This document shows positions 623-37,414 of a DNA stretch of 43,755 nucleotides, in pieces. The position numbers and the translations under genes were made by a program. The stretch comes from a virus, in UHGV virus genome UHGV-0008389. One strand, 5' to 3'. The stretch's first letter is position 1, and each line of letters starts with the position of its first letter. Below the pieces are notes generated by a model. The model saw only the letters and a program-made list of their open reading frames with translations. It was not told the DNA's origin and did no database searches.

Positions 623-1822
623 ATGGTCGTGAGCGTTTTTATGTTTGACTTGACGTTTATTATCTTTATTTTATCTTCCATCCCTGTATTTTTTGTTTTT
701 TGGATTGCCGGAAGGTTTAAGAATGAATTAGTTGCAGACTCTTCTTTTGGGTTGCGAGGTGATGACAATTTATCTTGCCTCAGGGGGTTGGCGGCTGTCA
801 TGGTCGCCCTTCACCATTCAGTATATATGTTCAATTATCTTTATCATGATAAATGGAGTATATTTTTGAATGATGGATTTACGGCGAAGTCAAGCAACAA
901 TAGTTTATTGGCTATTGCATATTTTGGCTCCATTCCAGTCATGATATTCTTTATGATTACAGGGTTTCTCTTCTTTAGAAAAATAATAAACAAACCAATA
1001 AACAATGCTGCAATATTTTTGTCGGCGCGAGTTAAGAGACTAATTCCAATGTATGCATTCATGGTGCTTTGCGTTGTTTGTGTTTCTGAATTAATTCGAC
1101 CCAACGATAGCATTGGGATTCACAACATTATTGTTGAAGTTGGCCGATATTTTACGTTTGGTATAATTGACCCTAATGGCCTTACACCTTCTATTCATGG
1201 ATCTTTAATCGTTGGCGGGGTTATCTGGACTCTTGCATATGAGTGGGGTTTTTATATAATTTTACCATATATCTCTATGTTCGTAAAATCAATAAGAGAT
1301 GCATGTTTTTCGGTAATAATTATGCTTTTCTCGGTATTAATTGCTTACCGCCAAGGGCTTATCAGTGAAATGTTTGCCACTCTTCTCTTTTGCTTTATTG
1401 GTGGCTTTGTTGCAGCGCTAGCTTCTGGTTACCTAAAGAACAACGCTATCAAACAAGCCAATAGCGTAATGATGACAATTGTGTACCTTTTATCGCTTAT
1501 TGCTGTTGCATACTGGCAGGACTTTAACATTTACAATGTTTACATAGTGATTCCGCTATTTTTGTTTTTTTTAAGTGCGTGTACTGGCTCCAAAGCTTTT
1601 CAAATTATAAACACCAAGTTCTTCAAGGTGGCGGGTTCTGTAAGTTACAGCATTTATTTGATGCATGGCTTAAGCATGGTAATGACCTTTAATTTCATTT
1701 CAAGCTCATTAAACTATACTGAGTTTGCAGCAATATCTTTATCAATTTGTGCAATGATAAGTTGCTTAACTTACTTATACATTGAAAAACCCGCAATGAA
1801 AAAACAGTTTAAAAACAATTAG
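623..1822 (+). CDS. Integral-membrane acyltransferase (acyltransferase-3 family, OafA/Oac-like O-antigen acetylase); lysogenic-conversion moron
   Basis: 399 aa, multiple hydrophobic segments, N-terminal LRGLAAVMVALHHS motif typical of acyltransferase-3; strongly AT-rich; lies between attR and the tail-fibre genes on the opposite strand. Start may be the second ATG at 641. Confidence 0.75.
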   Translation: MVVSVFMFDLTFIIFILSSIPVFFVFWIAGRFKNELVADSSFGLRGDDNLSCLRGLAAVMVALHHSVYMFNYLYHDKWSIFLNDGFTAKSSNNSLLAIAYFGSIPVMIFFMITGFLFFRKIINKPINNAAIFLSARVKRLIPMYAFMVLCVVCVSELIRPNDSIGIHNIIVEVGRYFTFGIIDPNGLTPSIHGSLIVGGVIWTLAYEWGFYIILPYISMFVKSIRDACFSVIIMLFSVLIAYRQGLISEMFATLLFCFIGGFVAALASGYLKNNAIKQANSVMMTIVYLLSLIAVAYWQDFNIYNVYIVIPLFLFFLSACTGSKAFQIINTKFFKVAGSVSYSIYLMHGLSMVMTFNFISSSLNYTEFAAISLSICAMISCLTYLYIEKPAMKKQFKNN

Positions 1823-20971: not shown

Positions 20972-22427
20972 ATTCAGATTCCATCATGTGGTATGGACTG
21001 GCCTTATCCGACTGGCGCATACTTCTTATTGCATCAAGGTCAAACACGCCAGCTTCGGCATAGTTCTTATCAGCCTCAGACTGATGTTTCATGATCTCGG
21101 CTTTCTCTGCTTCTGTAAGCTCGTACAGCGGCAGGAATTCAAAATCAATGTCAGGGTCAATCTCGCCAAATTCATTCAACTGGATAACATCCAGCACTGT
21201 TTTCAGCGGCACCCTGAACAGATTCTCCTGCATGGCGTGTATTGAGTCATAGAAGACGCGGATTTCGCCATCAGATGAAGCGTTTAGCCCGTTAGGAGTG
21301 ATGCCAAGGAGCTTAACCAGAGGAATGCTTGATACCGATGCCATTTGTTCCTGTGCCTGCGCCTGAAGAGCATCGACTCCGGACAGACTTGTCACAAACT
21401 GGAAGAATTCTTCCCCATCCTTATCAATAAGGAACATTCCGCGATTGTCGCGAACCTTATTGAAGAGCTCGGCACGCATAAACAGGTTTGGGTCTGCAAT
21501 TCCAGACAAGGCATTCTGCATGTTCGTCTTCAGCCCATAGACCACAAACGAATGAACCAGATCGCTAACGCTGTCACGTGTTCTCAGCCAGTTTTGCACA
21601 TAGGGCTCTGCCATCTGACTCAGCGACAAGCCGCCGAAGTTGTACGCCGCTTTGAGAATGTCTGGCACCTGGCGAGAAATCATTGTCAACATGCGACTGG
21701 CGTGAACCGTGCGCCCCATGACATACCATTCAGATGGATTGAAGAAGTCAGGGCTTAGAGGATTGTCAGCGTTATACACGCCCGGGTAAGTCCACATGGC
21801 TTCGATAACGCGGAAACCATTCAGGCTTCCTTTGGTAATCTTGCGCGGACTGATATAGAGCTTCTTATCCAGTTCGTCGGGAACCAGCCAGGCTGAGTTA
21901 CCGCTTGGCGTCTTCACGTCGATATAAATCTGTCCGCGCCCGAAGTAACCGTCATGTTCCGCCGCCTCGCGAAACTTCTCTCGCACTCTGAAACGCTTTA
22001 ATGCGTCGTCAAGCTGGCGAATCTTATCGGCCTTGTCGTCACCATCGTCTTTACCAACATGTTTCAGCTCAATCCATTTTCGCGTCATCTCTTCTGCTAT
22101 CGTGCCAGTAATCTTGCGATACTCCGGCAACTGAGCAAGTTGAGACAGATATGGGTAGCCAGGAAACCCACCGTAGCCATATGCGGTGATGTTTGCTGAA
22201 TTAAGGTAACTGTACGGTGTGGAGTCCATCGCCAGAGCTGACTCCCCAATATGTTCCGGAATAACGCCAGGCGGGGGTACGTATCGCTCAATTCTACGCA
22301 ATGCCTCGCCTTCATTTTTAATTCGCTCCTGCTCGTTAATAATCGCAAGAACATTCGCCAGAGACATTGGCTGTTTCGCCTCTTCTTTCTGAGGCTCAGA
22401 TTTTTTCTTTCTCAAAAAATTAAACAC
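20892..22427 (-). CDS. Portal protein
   Basis: 511 aa, acidic C-terminus; immediately downstream of the large terminase. Confidence 0.7.
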
Positions 22428-23953
22428 TATGCGAGCCTCAAAAGGTCTTCAGATATACGTAACGGACCATTGCCATTTTTCATCTCATCGATGGCATCCA
22501 TCATCGGATCAAGCTGGTCGTCGTGCGTATTGAAATCAGGATTAATAGCTTCCATTTCAACGAGGAAGTCGTTGATGAATGGTGCGTTGCTGGGGAGCTT
22601 GATGTAGCCGGACTCGATATAACCCTGTACGTCCATCAGTCGCGTGTACTTATCCTTATCACGCTGAATTGCTTTGATGGGGCATATCGCTTTTTTTCGG
22701 ATGTTCTGTATCAGGCCTGTGCCAGATGACTTATCCTCTATCGCCATGTGGCGAAGCGGCCCATTCTTCAGAGTTTTGCACTTTTCCCAGAATGCAACAG
22801 CACGGCGTTGTAATTCATCGGCCTCCCATTTACCGCGAATCATATCGATCAGATAGATGTACCCGTCAGTACCAAGCCCCCAGTGCTCGAATACTGAGAA
22901 GTCGTTGACCTCTTTTGTTTTCTGTGCGGTGTCTCCATAGACGGCACGCCATTGCATGGGAGGGAGTACCGAATATTCACCAAACCATTCAGACTTAATA
23001 AGCCCACCGCCTTTGGCGGTTGGTCGTTGCTGATAAAGGGCATTCCATACAAGAGAACCGCGCTGTTTGCACTTCTCTACGAACTCTCTCGGCATGCGCT
23101 CAGGAAACAGAATTTCACCGGGATTGCGCAGTCGATACACATTACCGTTGAGTTCATGAATCTCTTCCTTTTCAGCCTCCATTGGGAAGCTAACTACGCG
23201 CCAGCGTTCCCCGCCCTCTTCAGCCAGTTTTAATAACTGTCCGGCGAGATCGTTTTGATGCCAGCGTGTCAGGATGATGACGATGCCGTTTATCTTCGGG
23301 TCAACACGAGTGAAGAATGTCGTGTCATACCAGTCCATCACCGCTTCCTGGTAAGTTGGAGACGATGCGGTTTTGTAATCTTTCGCGGGGTCATCAATAA
23401 CCCCAATATTCATACCCTGCCCGGTGATGCCCCCGTTAACACCAGCAGAACGATATGAGCCGCCGTGTAGTTCGCCTTTGGCATCCACTGGTTCCCATAG
23501 CTCGGTTTTGTTGATGCCTCCCGCCAAACTGCGTCCTGAAGGTATTTTCACGTCAGGGAAAACATCAGCGTACTTGTCAGAGGTGATAATGCGTTTAACG
23601 TCACGGCTCATTCGGTCTGACAGGTCAGAAGAATATGAGCACGAGATAATGTTCCATGATGGATGCTGTCCTAACACATACGCTGGGAAACGGCGAGAGC
23701 ACAACTCACTCTTTCCTGAGCGCGGAGGGGCAAACACCATTAGCCTGGGCATGTTTCCGGCTTTAACTTCATCCAGAAAGTGATCCAGCTCAGCACAAAG
23801 CAGCTCGTTAAACCAACCTGTTTCGTATTGCGGATTAGTGTACAAAGTGAAATCGAGAAGGTTTTTCCTTGCTGAGCGGATAGCCAGCTCTTTGTGCAAC
23901 TCATAAATCTGAGCGTTTCGATTCAAGCTGATTGGAGCGCCTGCCATTACCAA
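22427..23953 (-). CDS. terL: Terminase large subunit
   Basis: 508 aa; Walker A-like [10 protein letters not shown] and ATPase/nuclease-type layout; follows the small subunit. Confidence 0.85.
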
Positions 23954-24488
23954 GCTCCTTCAGTTTCTCTTCAAGTAACTCTTCTGACATATCAGCATAA
24001 CGAACAGGCCCACCATCAGCGCCAGTTATTTCTGTAGATGTTTGCTCTTTAAACGCCTGAACAGAAACATGCTTACCAAGAAGTTCGAGGTTTTTGACCT
24101 TATCAGGCCATTTGATTTTCTTCAGAAGTGCGGCACTATCTGCGGATACCATCTCCACGACATCCATTCCTGATAGCGTTGTGCGCCATACCTTAGGCCA
24201 GTCTTTAATGGGTTTTAGCTCACCGTTTTGCAGGAGAATGTCGAGCACATCCATCTGGTCGATTTCAAGAAGGCGATTAAGTACGTATTCTGCATTTATT
24301 CCAACAGAGTCATTGCGTTGTGCTTTCAATTCGGAGATTCTGAATTGTATGTCAGGTTTTGACATGTTTTCGGACGCAGTACGGTTGGCTGTTTTTGCGC
24401 TGTACCCCGCCCGAATAGCCGCTTGCGTGGCGTTTAAATCGATGAGGTACTCGCGACAGAACATTTCTTGTTTGTCAGTGAGCGCCAT
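23901..24488 (-). CDS. terS: Terminase small subunit
   Basis: 195 aa; N-terminal MALTDKQEMFCREYLIDLNATQAAIRAGYS resembles phage terminase small-subunit DNA-binding regions; overlaps the terL start. Confidence 0.75.
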   Translation of the reverse strand: MALTDKQEMFCREYLIDLNATQAAIRAGYSAKTANRTASENMSKPDIQFRISELKAQRNDSVGINAEYVLNRLLEIDQMDVLDILLQNGELKPIKDWPKVWRTTLSGMDVVEMVSADSAALLKKIKWPDKVKNLELLGKHVSVQAFKEQTSTEITGADGGPVRYADMSEELLEEKLKELGNGRRSNQLESKRSDL

Positions 24489-24515
24489 ATTTTCCCCTGC
24501 TGATAAGGTAAATAA

Positions 24516-25040
24516 ATGAATCCTGAAATTTTTGAATCAAAGTTCATAATGAACGAAGCAACTTGGCAACGAATTGAAAGGTTAGTAAATACTGAAGATG
24601 ATATTGGTTTGGTTTTAAGAGTACATCTGATTACAGAAGCAATGATTGAGGCATTTTGTTGCGCCGCTGTAGGTAACCAAAATCTATTTGATGGATTTGG
24701 TGAAAACTTAACCATGACCTATGCCGCAAAAATTCAGCTAGCTGCCAACCTCGGCCTAAATGAACACTCCGTCGCAGAACTTAAACGCCTAAATAGAATA
24801 AGAAATGTTCGCTCTCATCAAATAGACAACCCGGAAATAACTGACGCAGAAATTGAATCATTACGAACATTTATTAGCCGAGGTGGTCAGGAAGATCTCA
24901 TTAACTCAGCAAGATTCGGCATAAAAGTTGGAGACATTGAGCTGAATCTTAACCGTCCAGATGCCAATAATCGTGAAAAATTCATAGCTATTCTTGGCAG
25001 CATCATCCTAAGGCTCACTAAACAAGTTGCAGGACAATAG
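24516..25040 (+). CDS. Hypothetical protein with RNxxxH (HEPN-like) motif; moron transcribed opposite to the late operon
   Basis: 174 aa, AT-rich relative to neighbours; AAGG RBS 7 nt upstream; motif LKRLNRIRNVRSHQ contains R-N-x-x-x-H; hairpin after the stop (25041-25070). Confidence 0.6.
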   Translation: MNPEIFESKFIMNEATWQRIERLVNTEDDIGLVLRVHLITEAMIEAFCCAAVGNQNLFDGFGENLTMTYAAKIQLAANLGLNEHSVAELKRLNRIRNVRSHQIDNPEITDAEIESLRTFISRGGQEDLINSARFGIKVGDIELNLNRPDANNREKFIAILGSIILRLTKQVAGQ

Positions 25041-25647
25041 AGCTCATTGACTGAGCTAATTGATTGTTTTAGCGCATAAACCTATACCACAAAATAGCCA
25101 CTTATCACGCTTCATCATTCAATTCTGGCGTGAACTGTATGCGCCTCACATTGTCGGGAGAGAAATACAGTCACTCTCCCGTCTCGATCACAAGCGGCAC
25201 AAAGCCGTTAACCAACTCATGCTGAAATCGTGACGTCTTGCTCGTAACGGTTTCGCCTGTTTGGGTGGTTAACGTGATTTGGTAGATGTTGGACATTGAG
25301 AATCTCTTTATCCGCTTGTGGGGATATCAGTTAAGTTATCCCGTGTAGGGTATAAGCCATTGTCGAGACCACTCATTGAATGGTCTCTGCAATAACCGAT
25401 GTCTTTCCATCAGTCCGCCACCACAAAGAATCTTTTTTGCCATAAGGCTGGAGGTTCATCTTTCAGTGGCTGCCAGTGTTATTTCCCCACTTACTGGCTT
25501 GGGTTGTTTCGTGGTACTGCCGTAACTGGTGGTGCACAGATTTAGTTAAATCTGTTCTCGCCTGAACTATCTTTTACATACCCGGATTGTGGGGATGTAA
25601 ATCACGGTTTCATTATCAAGCCCACCCGTAGATGGGCTTTGGAATGG

Positions 25648-26202
25648 TCACTTTGGCAGTCCGGGGATCGATATTTGCGACTGCTGCTCAAGCCTTTCGA
25701 TTCTTGCTATGAGTTGCGGTTTTTTGATCCTGCCCCAGCGGTTCAGCAAGCGTCCTGACATACTGGCAACATCCTTTTCCTTCATGAACTCCAGCATTAA
25801 CTCGTTGTGCTCTCTTTGGTATGAGTGAGCCATCTCCATCAGCCTGTCACGCATCCAATTAAATGCTTTGATAAACGCCTCTTTGATGGCGGCAGCTTTT
25901 TTGCCGGTAAACGACATGATGATGTACATCGCACCGTCTTTGGAAATTTCATATTCAACATACTGATTACCCTTGTGTTCATAGGTAACCCGCGAAAAGT
26001 TGCTGGTTAGAAATTCATCCGAACAGTCTAGCTTTTCGATTTTCTGAATGATGTGGTGATGCTGCTTGTCGAAGTAAGCTGCTACCTTGCGGGAGGTTGT
26101 GATCACGCGATCACCAGAAACAACCACCATGTCCCGGAAATCGAGATTAGCCAATTGATGATTCATAGCGTCTTTACCTTTTAGAAAGTGAGCCTGTCTC
26201 AC
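25648..26202 (-). CDS. rha: Phage regulatory protein, Rha family
   Basis: 184 aa; VVVSGDRVITTSRKVAAYFDKQHHHIIQKIEKL and FTGKKAAAIKEAFIKAFNWM match Rha-family conserved regions. Confidence 0.75.
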   Translation of the reverse strand: MRQAHFLKGKDAMNHQLANLDFRDMVVVSGDRVITTSRKVAAYFDKQHHHIIQKIEKLDCSDEFLTSNFSRVTYEHKGNQYVEYEISKDGAMYIIMSFTGKKAAAIKEAFIKAFNWMRDRLMEMAHSYQREHNELMLEFMKEKDVASMSGRLLNRWGRIKKPQLIARIERLEQQSQISIPGLPK

Positions 26203-26313
26203 AGAAAAGCCGCCCGAGAGAGGTCGCCACCTATAACGGCATTTCTCAGGCTCGCTTACTGAAAGGCTCTCGTTAATATGCGCGTGAGATGCGCTGTGAA
26301 ATTCAGATATAAA

Positions 26314-26509: not shown

Positions 26510-26947
26510 TCATCGAAGGCATTGCGTCCTGATGTATTCCTGCAGGTAGTTAACCTGCGCGGTTATCTTGTCGATTCCACTTCGGAGACGGTAATAATTG
26601 AGTTCAGCATCTGCTGTAAGTCTTGGGCTTTCTCCATCGCCCATGCTGCTGGCTCCGGTCGTTGACTTTGCACAGGTGGCGGCGACTTGCAGGCGCTTAC
26701 GCCCAGCAGAAACATCAGCACGGAGACTTTCGATAGTCGCGTTAGCATCAGCAAGCTCCTTTGTGTATCTGGCATCAAGTTCTGCTACATCACGTTGACG
26801 CTTCTGCATATCAGCGATGATGGATGTGGCTTTATCGCGCTGCTCTTTGTAGGTCATGGCGTTATCACGGTAATGATTAACAGCCCATGACAGGCAGACG
26901 ATGATGCAGATAACCAGAGCGGAGATAATCGCGGTTACTCTGCTCAT
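26510..26947 (-). CDS. Rz: Spanin inner-membrane subunit Rz (i-spanin)
   Basis: 145 aa; [30 protein letters not shown]... near-identical to lambda Rz as recalled. Confidence 0.9.
26563..26748 (-). CDS. Rz1: Spanin outer-membrane lipoprotein subunit Rz1 (o-spanin), embedded in Rz in the +1 frame
   Basis: Embedded ORF with lipoprotein signal ...[10 protein letters not shown] and proline-rich [16 protein letters not shown], as in lambda Rz1; start taken at the internal Met (MLTRLSK...). Confidence 0.8.
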
Positions 26948-27420
26948 ACCTCAATCTCTCTGACCGTTCCGCCTGCTTCTTTGAATTTTGCAATCAGGCT
27001 GTCAGCCTTATGCTCGAACTGACCATAACCAGCACCCGGCAGTGAAGCCCAGATATTGCTGCAACGGTCGATTGCCTGACGAATATCACCGCGATCAATC
27101 ATCGGTAAAGCGCCACGCTCCTTAATCTGCTGCAGCGCAACAGCGTCCTGGCTTTTGGGAGAGAAGTCTTTCAGGCCAAGCTGCTTACGGTAAGCATCCC
27201 ACCAACGGGAAAGAAGCTGGTAACGTCCGGCTGCTGTTGATTTGAGTTTGGGGTTTAGCGTGACAAGTTTGCGAGGGTGATCGGAGTAATCAGTGAATAG
27301 CTCTCCGCCAACAATGACGTCATAACCATGATTTCTGGTTTTCTGACGTCCGTTATCAGTTCCCTCTGACCACGCCAGCATATCGAGGAACGCCTTACGT
27401 TGATTATTGATTTCCACCAT
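26944..27420 (-). CDS. R: Endolysin R (lytic transglycosylase)
   Basis: 158 aa; [51 protein letters not shown]... essentially identical to lambda R as recalled. Confidence 0.95.
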
Positions 27421-27727
27421 CTTCTACTCCGGCTTTTTTAGCAGCGAAGCGTTTGATAAGCGAACCAATCGAGTCAGTACCGATGTAGCCGATGAACACG
27501 CTCGTTATATAAGCGAGATTGCTACTTAGTCCGGCGAAGTCGAGAAGGTCACGAATGAACCAGGCGATAATGGCGCACATCGTTGCGTCGATTACTGTTT
27601 TTGTAAACGCACCGCCATTATATCTGCCGCGAAGGTACGCCATTGCAAACGCAAGGATTGCCCCGATGCCTTGTTCCTTTGCCGTAAGAATGGCGGCTAA
27701 CAGGTCATGTTTTTCTGGCATCTTCAT
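27404..27727 (-). CDS. S: Holin S (dual-start S107/S105)
   Basis: 107 aa beginning [14 protein letters not shown]..., near-identical to lambda S, including the Met-Lys-Met dual-start motif. Confidence 0.95.
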
Positions 27728-35577: not shown

Positions 35578-36294
<717 letters not shown>

Positions 36295-36409: not shown

Positions 36410-37414
36410 ATGAATACTATTGAAAATAATGATGTTTATGTGTATATAGGCGATATTCATCGTGATGGTTATCTTGATCTAACCAATAAAATCAAGAAGC
36501 GTAAGTCACAAAATGAATTAAAAAAGAATGTTATCTTCTGTGTTGCTACTTATGGCGGTGATCCTAATGCTGGTTATCGTATAGGTAGGGCTCTCCAGCA
36601 CTATTATGAAACGGTAACACTTTTAGTTGTTGGGCCGTGCAAAAGTGCTGGTACACTAATAGCCATAGCTGCGAATAAACTTGTTATCGGTGACATGGGT
36701 GAGCTCGGGCCATTAGATATCCAACTGAAAAAAAACGATGAAATAGGTGAGATGAGTTCTGGTTTAGCCATTATGACAGCTCTCGATGCACTGAAGGAGC
36801 GCTCTATTTCAGCGTTTAACTCATACCTTGTTCAGATAAAATACGAAAACCAGATAAGCACTAAAATATCTGCTGACATCGCAACCAGACTTACAGAGGC
36901 ATTGATAGCCCCCATGGCTGCTCAGATAGATCCAATAAAACTTGGTGAGCATCAGCGTGCGATGAGCATTGCTATCACTTATGGTCAACGGTTAGCAGAC
37001 AAGCCAAGTAGTCTAAAAGAAGGGGCGTTAAGCAAACTCATCGCTTCGTATCCTTCACATGGATTTGTTATCGACAGAAAAGAAGCCAAGGAACTTTTCA
37101 AGTGTGTTGAATGTCCTAAAGGTATAACAGAAATACTCGATAATTTTTTCTGTGATAAGATTCATAGTGGTGAAATCCCAACGTTTGGAAAACCAAGGGT
37201 GATGGATTTCCCTCTTACTACACAAGATAAAGAGGACAATACTAATGCCGAAGAATCTGCAACCGGAGATGGAAATTCTCAACAAAATGTTGGAAAGCCA
37301 GATCCAAGAAAGTCGCAATCTGGCAAGAAAAGCGGAACAGCACCTGAACGAGATCAAAAAAGAACTGGAGCCGTATCAATTCAACCACCAGATGAACAGC
37401 AACCTAATGCGTGA
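36410..37414 (+). CDS. ClpP/SppA-fold serine protease-like protein occupying the rexA/rexB slot downstream of cI
   Basis: 334 aa, AT-rich; GGAG-type RBS; VIFCVATYGGDPNAGYRIGRAL and VVGPCKSAGTLIAIAA fit the ClpP/S49 pattern (GG..AG..I; G-x-[AC]-x-S-x-G around a candidate nucleophilic Ser); about 70-aa hydrophilic C-terminal tail; same strand and operon position as rexAB in lambda; terminator at 37445-37470. Confidence 0.65.
   Translation: MNTIENNDVYVYIGDIHRDGYLDLTNKIKKRKSQNELKKNVIFCVATYGGDPNAGYRIGRALQHYYETVTLLVVGPCKSAGTLIAIAANKLVIGDMGELGPLDIQLKKNDEIGEMSSGLAIMTALDALKERSISAFNSYLVQIKYENQISTKISADIATRLTEALIAPMAAQIDPIKLGEHQRAMSIAITYGQRLADKPSSLKEGALSKLIASYPSHGFVIDRKEAKELFKCVECPKGITEILDNFFCDKIHSGEIPTFGKPRVMDFPLTTQDKEDNTNAEESATGDGNSQQNVGKPDPRKSQSGKKSGTAPERDQKRTGAVSIQPPDEQQPNA

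Follow-up and report, generated by a model that had tools for sequence, protein, structure and literature searches.

The window, a stretch of 43,755 nucleotides from UHGV virus genome UHGV-0008389, contains a 174-residue open reading frame (ORF) whose product, judged by profile searches and alignment, is a stand-alone, distant homolog of HepS, the "HEPN Solo" protein of prophage Gifsy-1. The favored reading, to which a probability of roughly 60% is attached, is that this gene encodes a lysogen-expressed, trigger-activated solo HEPN RNase that would abort superinfection, with a trigger different from that of HepS and possibly also a different RNA target. An earlier sequence-only reading had named the ORF a candidate abortive-infection gene, and this is supported as far as it can be computed, the closest characterized relative, HepS, being itself a solo HEPN abortive-infection nuclease. 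The gene and its two central signals are as follows.

24516..25040, plus strand: HEPN gene, 174 aa, ATG start, stop codon included; distant HepS homolog.
24505..24509, plus strand: Shine-Dalgarno sequence AAGG(T), 6-7 nt 5' of the HEPN-gene ATG, read from the sequence.
24801..24818, plus strand: codons of R96-N97-V98-R99-S100-H101 (Rx4H), the predicted HEPN catalytic motif.

The ORF is a real coding gene under purifying selection, since, of 33 full-length copies found in viral contigs, 32 have an unbroken frame and retain the motif, and since nonsynonymous divergence (dN) from homologs of 58-75% identity is 0.17-0.37 while synonymous divergence (dS) is saturated. Close homologs (39-88% identity) have equal length and uninterrupted frames, and the Shine-Dalgarno sequences of the homolog loci are as good or better, at the same spacing. 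The ribosome-binding site and the elevated AT content that had been noticed from the letters are both confirmed: GC content is 0.387 (0.297 at third codon positions), vs. 0.456 in terS, 0.491 in terL, 0.458 in the Rha gene and 0.453 in the whole window, which amounts to 38.7% against 45-50% in the neighboring genes. Only 4.9% of 525-bp segments are as AT-rich as the ORF, and most of these fall in another accessory gene at 1-1800. The extent first proposed, 24516-25070, is right at its start, but the ORF ends at 25040, and the remainder takes in a hairpin. A conserved but functionless or non-expressed ORF, in other words an annotation artefact, would agree with the name "hypothetical protein" under which all databases list it and with the lack of a detected promoter; against the intact copies, the substitution pattern, the conserved Shine-Dalgarno sequence and a confident, folded structure model, this explanation is very improbable.

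The lone decayed copy (L017:5001-5525 in IMGVR_UViG_2648501357_000002, also P0012; 89% identical) carries a TGA at the R96 codon together with H101Y, with the loss of both catalytic residues, and this single case is consistent with selection against the activity in that lineage. A further ORF on the plus strand (24094..24519, 141 aa), antisense to terS, ends in a TGA that overlaps the HEPN ATG (ATGA); it is probably spurious, given that the overlap is absent in locus L019 and that its composition is that of an antisense artefact.

The predicted active site lies in LKRLNRIRNVRSHQ (residues 89-102), in which R96-N97-V98-R99-S100-H101 forms an Rx4H motif with a polar residue, N97, next to the arginine. 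Conservation was read from three alignments, comprising the close homologs (A1), 78 diverse family members (A2), and a joint set that includes HepS (A3); an exhaustive profile search returned 367 cluster representatives at E<=1e-3. Residues R96, N97, R99, S100, and H101 are invariant in A1, and R96, N97, and H101 are conserved at 90% or more in A2 and invariant in A3. The RNxxxH motif with HEPN spacing proposed by the sequence-only reading is thereby upheld, its arginine and histidine being invariant in close homologs and nearly so in distant ones, and the conservation of these two residues, which it had named as a check, holds in all three alignments.

The AlphaFold2 model, built on a 14-sequence alignment (predicted local distance difference test score, pLDDT, 89.9; predicted template modeling score, pTM, 0.86), is helical with a small β-hairpin at residues 135-144 and consists of a single domain, its 174 aa falling within the <250 aa that Sargen et al. 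set for stand-alone proteins. The model displays the all-α up-down helical bundle of the HEPN superfamily, and Foldseek ranks apo HepS first among structural relatives (E 7e-4, template modeling score 0.54-0.57). The product is thus predicted to have a HEPN fold, in agreement with what had been expected of a structure prediction. Structural comparison with other members gave figures of 9.7 for the sacsin HEPN domain, 9.4 for the AF0298 HEPN domain, 8.1-8.3 for HepT-type toxins, 7.3 for Csm6, 6.9 for AbiA, 6.2 for LsoA, and 5.6 for RnlA, and a Foldseek search of the BFVD viral structures found nothing at E<=0.001.

Sequence comparison, too, ties the protein to HepS. A search of the PDB sequences with the A2 profile reaches HepS at E=1e-14 over HepS residues 25-144, and BLASTP aligns residues 69-128 with HepS 73-131, a stretch of 60 aa that surrounds the active-site helix (32% identity, E=3e-5). 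The hhalign comparison of the two proteins gives a probability of 77%, and a HepS fragment used as local query matches most family representatives. With the single sequence, phmmer against the PDB sequences returned only noise, and the family profile was required. Nine residues invariant in A3 (D28, E41, K72, A76, G80, N93, R96, N97, and H101) correspond to HepS D35, E48, K76, A80, G84, N97, R100, N101, and H105, and the invariant I103 aligns with HepS I107, part of the HepS activation switch. The protein also matches PHROG 5483, which is annotated "unknown function."

HepS is encoded by STM14_3211 in the Gifsy-1 prophage of Salmonella Typhimurium 14028 (PDB 9oij/9oik; Sargen et al., Nature 2026, PMC13043305) and was described in January 2026 as the abortive-infection protein "HEPN Solo" (PMC13043305). 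It is expressed constitutively from Gifsy-1, acts in lysogens, and is harmless alone even when overexpressed, without partner or inhibitor (PMC13043305). The protein is a tetramer with composite active sites in which R100/H105 are closed, and its interface includes F66, K78, and L83 (PMC13043305). A peptide of the J tail tip (siphovirus J CSF) activates HepS and opens the active sites, upon which the enzyme cuts tRNA-Thr(GGT) and a few further tRNAs (tRNA-Thr/Ile/Ser) in the anticodon loop (PMC13043305). The N- and C-terminal segments (S13, D15, S202, T203) together form the composite β-sheet that binds the trigger, and Gifsy-1 escapes self-killing through its own, non-triggering J variant (PMC13043305). 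Stand-alone homologues number 393, from Bacillaceae to Enterobacteriaceae (PMC13043305).

For the window gene we infer a comparable course of events, and this applies to lysogen expression, oligomeric state, nuclease activity, tRNA target, trigger, defense phenotype, and antisense silencing alike. The moron would be transcribed in the lysogen from a weak promoter of its own inside the antisense terS 5' end, and its product would accumulate as a catalytically closed oligomer that is harmless alone, so that no antitoxin would be required. A protein of a superinfecting phage would then bind and open the composite Rx4H sites across the dimer interface, RNA would be cleaved (by analogy with HepS, in the anticodon loops of particular tRNAs), translation would halt, and the infection would abort. 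During induction, the prophage's own late transcription, which comes from a Q-antiterminated operon, would run head-on through the gene and probably shut it off.

Several points weigh against this reading. Overall identity to HepS is about 20%. The Pfam scan of the protein found no significant family, its sole match being DUF6548 (E=0.029, 14.7 bits vs. a cut-off of 27.3), the NCBIfam scan found none either, and none of the defense hidden Markov models of PADLOC-DB v2 match, in a library of 2023 that predates HepS. The window protein stops right after its last helix (...TKQVAGQ), whereas HepS adds a tail of about 16 residues with S202/T203, and its N-terminus (MNPEIFESKF...) is predicted to be helical and cannot be aligned with the S13/D15/Y20 region of HepS. 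Because these trigger-binding elements are missing, the activation mechanism may not carry over. At the tetramer interface, one of the three mapped HepS residues is kept (L83, as L79), F66 being replaced by L57 and K78 by Q74. On the side of expression, a consensus scan found no sigma-70-like promoter upstream of the ORF, and manual reading of the aligned upstream regions of the homologs revealed no shared -35/-10 pair; as for antisense silencing at prophage induction, it is gene order alone that makes it plausible. Finally, the next-best structural relatives after HepS are MtlR/YggD, which are non-catalytic regulators. The protein could be a non-nucleolytic HEPN-fold regulator of that kind, binding a host protein or RNA to reprogram the physiology of the lysogen or carrier, as Pid does in P22. 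This is unlikely, for the sequence profiles reach HepS and not MtlR, and if the protein had no catalytic role, it would be difficult to see why R96, N97, and H101 stay invariant or nearly so in a family whose members have drifted apart to about 20% identity.

Other differences bear on what a solo HEPN RNase at this locus would sense and cut. The window protein has 174 aa vs. 210 aa in HepS; HepS N101 is kept as N97, but K71, the modeled anticodon contact, is not conserved. With other sensor termini and no conserved K71, the protein would be expected to respond to a trigger unlike that of HepS and perhaps to cut another RNA target. A short hydrophobic C-terminal tail occurs in some other clades (P0009, phi80 gp63, P0058, P0071, P0062), including the Citrobacter/Salmonella clade and several intermediate members. 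Whereas HepS is triggered by a siphovirus J tail tip, the window prophage encodes DUF3383 (sheath-like), Baseplate_J, and a gp53-like tail fiber, a combination that points to a module of the contractile-tail type and not to a lambda-J tail tip. The genomic position differs as well, HepS and a nearer relative of it (P0182) being located in the nin region, where they run in the direction of the early operon, and the window gene being antisense within the late operon. In an Enterobacter hormaechei prophage with a HepS-clade gene in the nin region, a DUF4145 protein is encoded directly after the lysis cassette (L056:9909-10592, plus strand); DUF4145 is also weakly matched by some members of the window HEPN family.

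The gene is surrounded by packaging, Rha-family, and lysis genes.

22427..23953, minus strand: terL, flanking packaging gene.
23901..24488, minus strand: terS (Terminase_2; Pfam PF03592, E=1.8e-39), its 5' end antisense to and directly upstream of the HEPN gene.
24489..24515, no strand: intergenic region of 27 bp from the terS start codon to that of the divergent HEPN gene, too short for a promoter.
24495..25320, no strand: replaceable segment, which the closest HEPN-free prophage (E. coli SC406, L004) lacks.
25171..25296, minus strand: small ORF of 41 aa, a truncated copy of a late-strand protein of 68-71 aa.
25648..26202, minus strand: Rha-family gene (Pfam Phage_pRha and ORF11CD3), the late-operon neighbor on the other side.
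26510..26947, minus strand: Rz, lysis gene.
26944..27420, minus strand: lysozyme, lysis gene.
27404..27727, minus strand: holin, lysis gene.

The location on the strand opposite to the late operon, which the sequence-only reading had pointed out, is borne out by terS, terL, Rha, Rz, lysozyme, and holin, all of which are on the minus strand. The HEPN gene is an AT-rich, replaceable insert with the character of a moron, because its GC content is low, the closest prophage lacks it, and a DNA search of 5426 complete E. coli genomes, even with relaxed sensitivity, finds it in just 2. The nearest prophage in these genomes (SC406) has the same terL, lysis genes, Rha, and far end of terS; in BLAST against it, the homology of the window ends near 24483 and returns at 25321 (99%). 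Two further prophages show other states of the slot, which is empty in STEC1587 (L003) and in E. coli 21AR0133 (L002), with a related terS and no HEPN gene, holds an unrelated plus-strand ORF of 111 aa. The latter (L002:4216-4551, WP_023330228.1) has exactly the placement and orientation of the HEPN gene, with 27 bp between it and terS, lacks a Pfam match, and may be another cargo gene of the hotspot.

The same arrangement extends well beyond this prophage. In all 41 IMG/VR loci the HEPN gene is antisense between lysis and packaging genes, and the placement recurs in Enterobacter (L007), Citrobacter (L009), Pantoea (L011-13), Salmonella phage FSL SP-016 (L005; homolog 59% identical), and phi80, in which PHI80_63 (gp63, L006; 30% identical) lies right after rha and before cos. 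Across the HEPN loci there are at least three terminase types and at least four lysis types: the packaging side is formed by Terminase_2 of at least three sequence types or by a lambda-like Nu1/GpA pair after a 111-aa gene, and the lysis side by GH24, GH19, phi80-type, or SP-016-type endolysins, with lysis and/or Rha genes. The gap to the upstream gene is constant per clade, at either 24-30 bp or 77 bp.

No conserved partner gene was found when all small flanking ORFs were compared across loci; they are unrelated between clades, and the earlier impression that there is no obvious partner ORF stands. The 41-aa ORF at 25171..25296 (identity 76% with its intact counterpart in L002 and 56% with that in L007) was rejected as a specific partner, its full-length form also occurring in L002 without the HEPN gene. 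No MNT or other antitoxin domain was found near the HEPN gene in any context examined, and Rfam returned no real RNA element over 23800-26300. These results bear on the possibility of a toxin-antitoxin or addiction module, in which the protein would be the toxin, a constitutively active HEPN RNase restrained by a small protein, by an RNA, or by the antisense late transcript, and which would serve to stabilize the prophage and not to sense phages. With neither a neighboring ORF conserved across loci, nor an antitoxin domain, nor an RNA family in the region, and with HepS non-toxic on overexpression and lacking an inhibitor (PMC13043305), the odds of this explanation are low, in the range of one in eight.

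The phage records contain homologs only in phi80 and FSL SP-016, and the HepS fragment finds none there. As these are functional phages, they lend something to the idea of an RNase that serves the lytic growth or establishment of the phage itself, through host shut-off, counter-defense, or RNA processing. Transcription against the late operon in every locus speaks against such a role, as do the dispensability of the gene (absent from the nearest relatives), its AT-richness, which is that of other morons, and the action of its homolog HepS in lysogens; the chance of a lytic function is small.

A solo RNase of the HepS kind would fit these contexts in a more specific, tentative form that is rather less likely than not to be correct. 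The clade that includes phi80 gp63 might be a HepS-derived nuclease whose sensor has been swapped or lost and whose trigger is something other than siphovirus J, and the antisense nesting in a Q-antiterminated late operon might be its self-immunity device. Silencing by the late transcription of the carrier would explain how a single cassette comes to be found in phages whose virion, terminase, and lysis modules are unrelated, and carriers would then need no non-triggering structural protein of the Gifsy-1 kind.

Two hairpins lie downstream of the gene.

25041..25057, plus strand: weak post-stop hairpin AGCTCA-TTGAC-TGAGCT, 6-bp stem, folding energy (dG) -7.3 kcal/mol, z -0.8.
25359..25393, no strand: strong hairpin, inverted repeat I1, dG -24.2 kcal/mol, z -5.2 on the minus strand.

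The hairpin noticed after the stop does exist, but its significance does not hold up, 39 of 200 shuffled sequences folding at least as well, which is not beyond chance; a terminator scan gave 1 site vs. 1.7 expected. The strong hairpin lies about 320 bp downstream, in a region 99% identical to the HEPN-free L004, is more stable on the late strand and belongs to the phage backbone. In other clades (L005:4556-4588, L009, L011, L025, L043, L044, L006) a strong hairpin stands right after the HEPN stop (dG -19 to -27, z -4 to -6), and these hairpins and the 25359-25393 element have a similar loop (..ACTCAnTGAAT..). The strong hairpin could be a terminator, an mRNA stabilizer, or a late-operon element.

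Given the 27-bp gap to terS, any promoter of the HEPN gene must lie in the antisense terS 5' end, where the sequence-only reading had also placed it. This part of the window (24407-24494, about 88 bp) matches, at about 90% identity, the stretch that directly precedes pid in P22/BTP1; in BTP1 the stretch is at L057 636-722, where the terS start codon is destroyed. Directly after the segment of about 88 bp stand at least three unrelated antisense morons, namely the HEPN gene, the L002 111-aa ORF, and pid. In P22, pid has a weak, eroded promoter with a transcription start site 174 bp upstream, a long 5' untranslated region, and a terminator that stabilizes the mRNA, and a second pid mRNA species is reported to be specified by that part of the untranslated region which matches the window segment (PMC8835761). 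The mapped promoter (start site at -174) falls outside the segment shared with the window, so pid is a precedent and not evidence for a HEPN-gene promoter. The window holds no tRNA genes and hence no phage-borne replacement tRNA.

Two further genes were noticed in the window. The most AT-rich part (GC 0.32-0.38), at the end of the tail-fiber region, encodes a 399-aa Acyl_transf_3 protein (623-1822, plus strand), probably an O-antigen-modifying lysogenic-conversion gene. A 334-aa ORF (36410-37414, plus strand) with weak similarity to ClpP/SDH-type serine proteases lies directly downstream, on the same strand, of a cI-like repressor (35581-36294, HTH_3 and Peptidase_S24), in the position of rexAB in lambda, and may be another lysogen-expressed accessory or defense gene.

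A solo prophage HEPN abortive-infection protein was already published in January 2026, and a broad family of homologs is known (PMC13043305). As far as the literature consulted shows, the missing trigger-binding tail, the fixed antisense slot, the presence in phi80, and the carriage by different virion types are not described for this clade. If the favored reading is true, single-protein, trigger-activated defense of the HepS type would extend to a second, well-separated clade, carried by prophages of E. coli, Enterobacter, Citrobacter, Salmonella, and Pantoea and by phi80. The differing sensor termini would then offer a natural comparison of how trigger specificity is encoded, and the fixed antisense placement would allow the idea that a prophage defense is silenced by the carrier's own transcription to be put to the test. 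PHROG 5483 and "hypothetical" proteins such as WP_001067622.1 and phi80 PHI80_63 would gain a function.

Among known systems, Tha/Ith of Staphylococcus aureus prophages is a tail-activated HEPN defense in which an antisense "noncontiguous operon" couples the defense to the phage life cycle (Rostol et al., 2024, PMC11087260). It resembles the window locus as a prophage-encoded HEPN RNase defense with antisense architecture. However, Tha is encoded in the cI operon and is paired with an inhibitor protein of its own, Ith, whereas no Ith-like partner is present at the window locus; the authors of the HepS study regard Tha/Ith as an entirely different system (PMC13043305). The HepT-MNT modules (PDB 5yep, 7ae2, 8xdj) consist of two genes, one for an MNT antitoxin, whereas no MNT gene adjoins the window gene, and their similarity to the window protein is far weaker than that of HepS. 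The Pfam HEPN families Abi_2 (AbiD/AbiF), RiboL-PSP, Apea, and Cthe_2314 are not matched by the window protein; some distant members of its family have matches, all far under the family thresholds, to HEPN_RiboL-PSP (16 of 78) and Abi_2 (6 of 78). MtlR/YggD, the mannitol operon repressor family (PDB 3brj, 3c8g, 6kcr), are non-catalytic regulators not known to carry Rx4-6H, whereas the window protein retains the motif and has no Pfam or PDB sequence match to them.

The closest parallels in position come from other morons. In P22 and BTP1, pid occupies the same slot in the same orientation, downstream of lysis/rha, upstream of packaging, and antisense to the late operon. The lysogen-expressed bor gene of lambda lies in this slot too, and the placement that the sequence-only reading had likened to bor is supported. 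Neither Bor, a lipoprotein, nor Pid, an ORFan that regulates dgo, is related to the HEPN protein, and the analogy that joins the three genes is one of position only.

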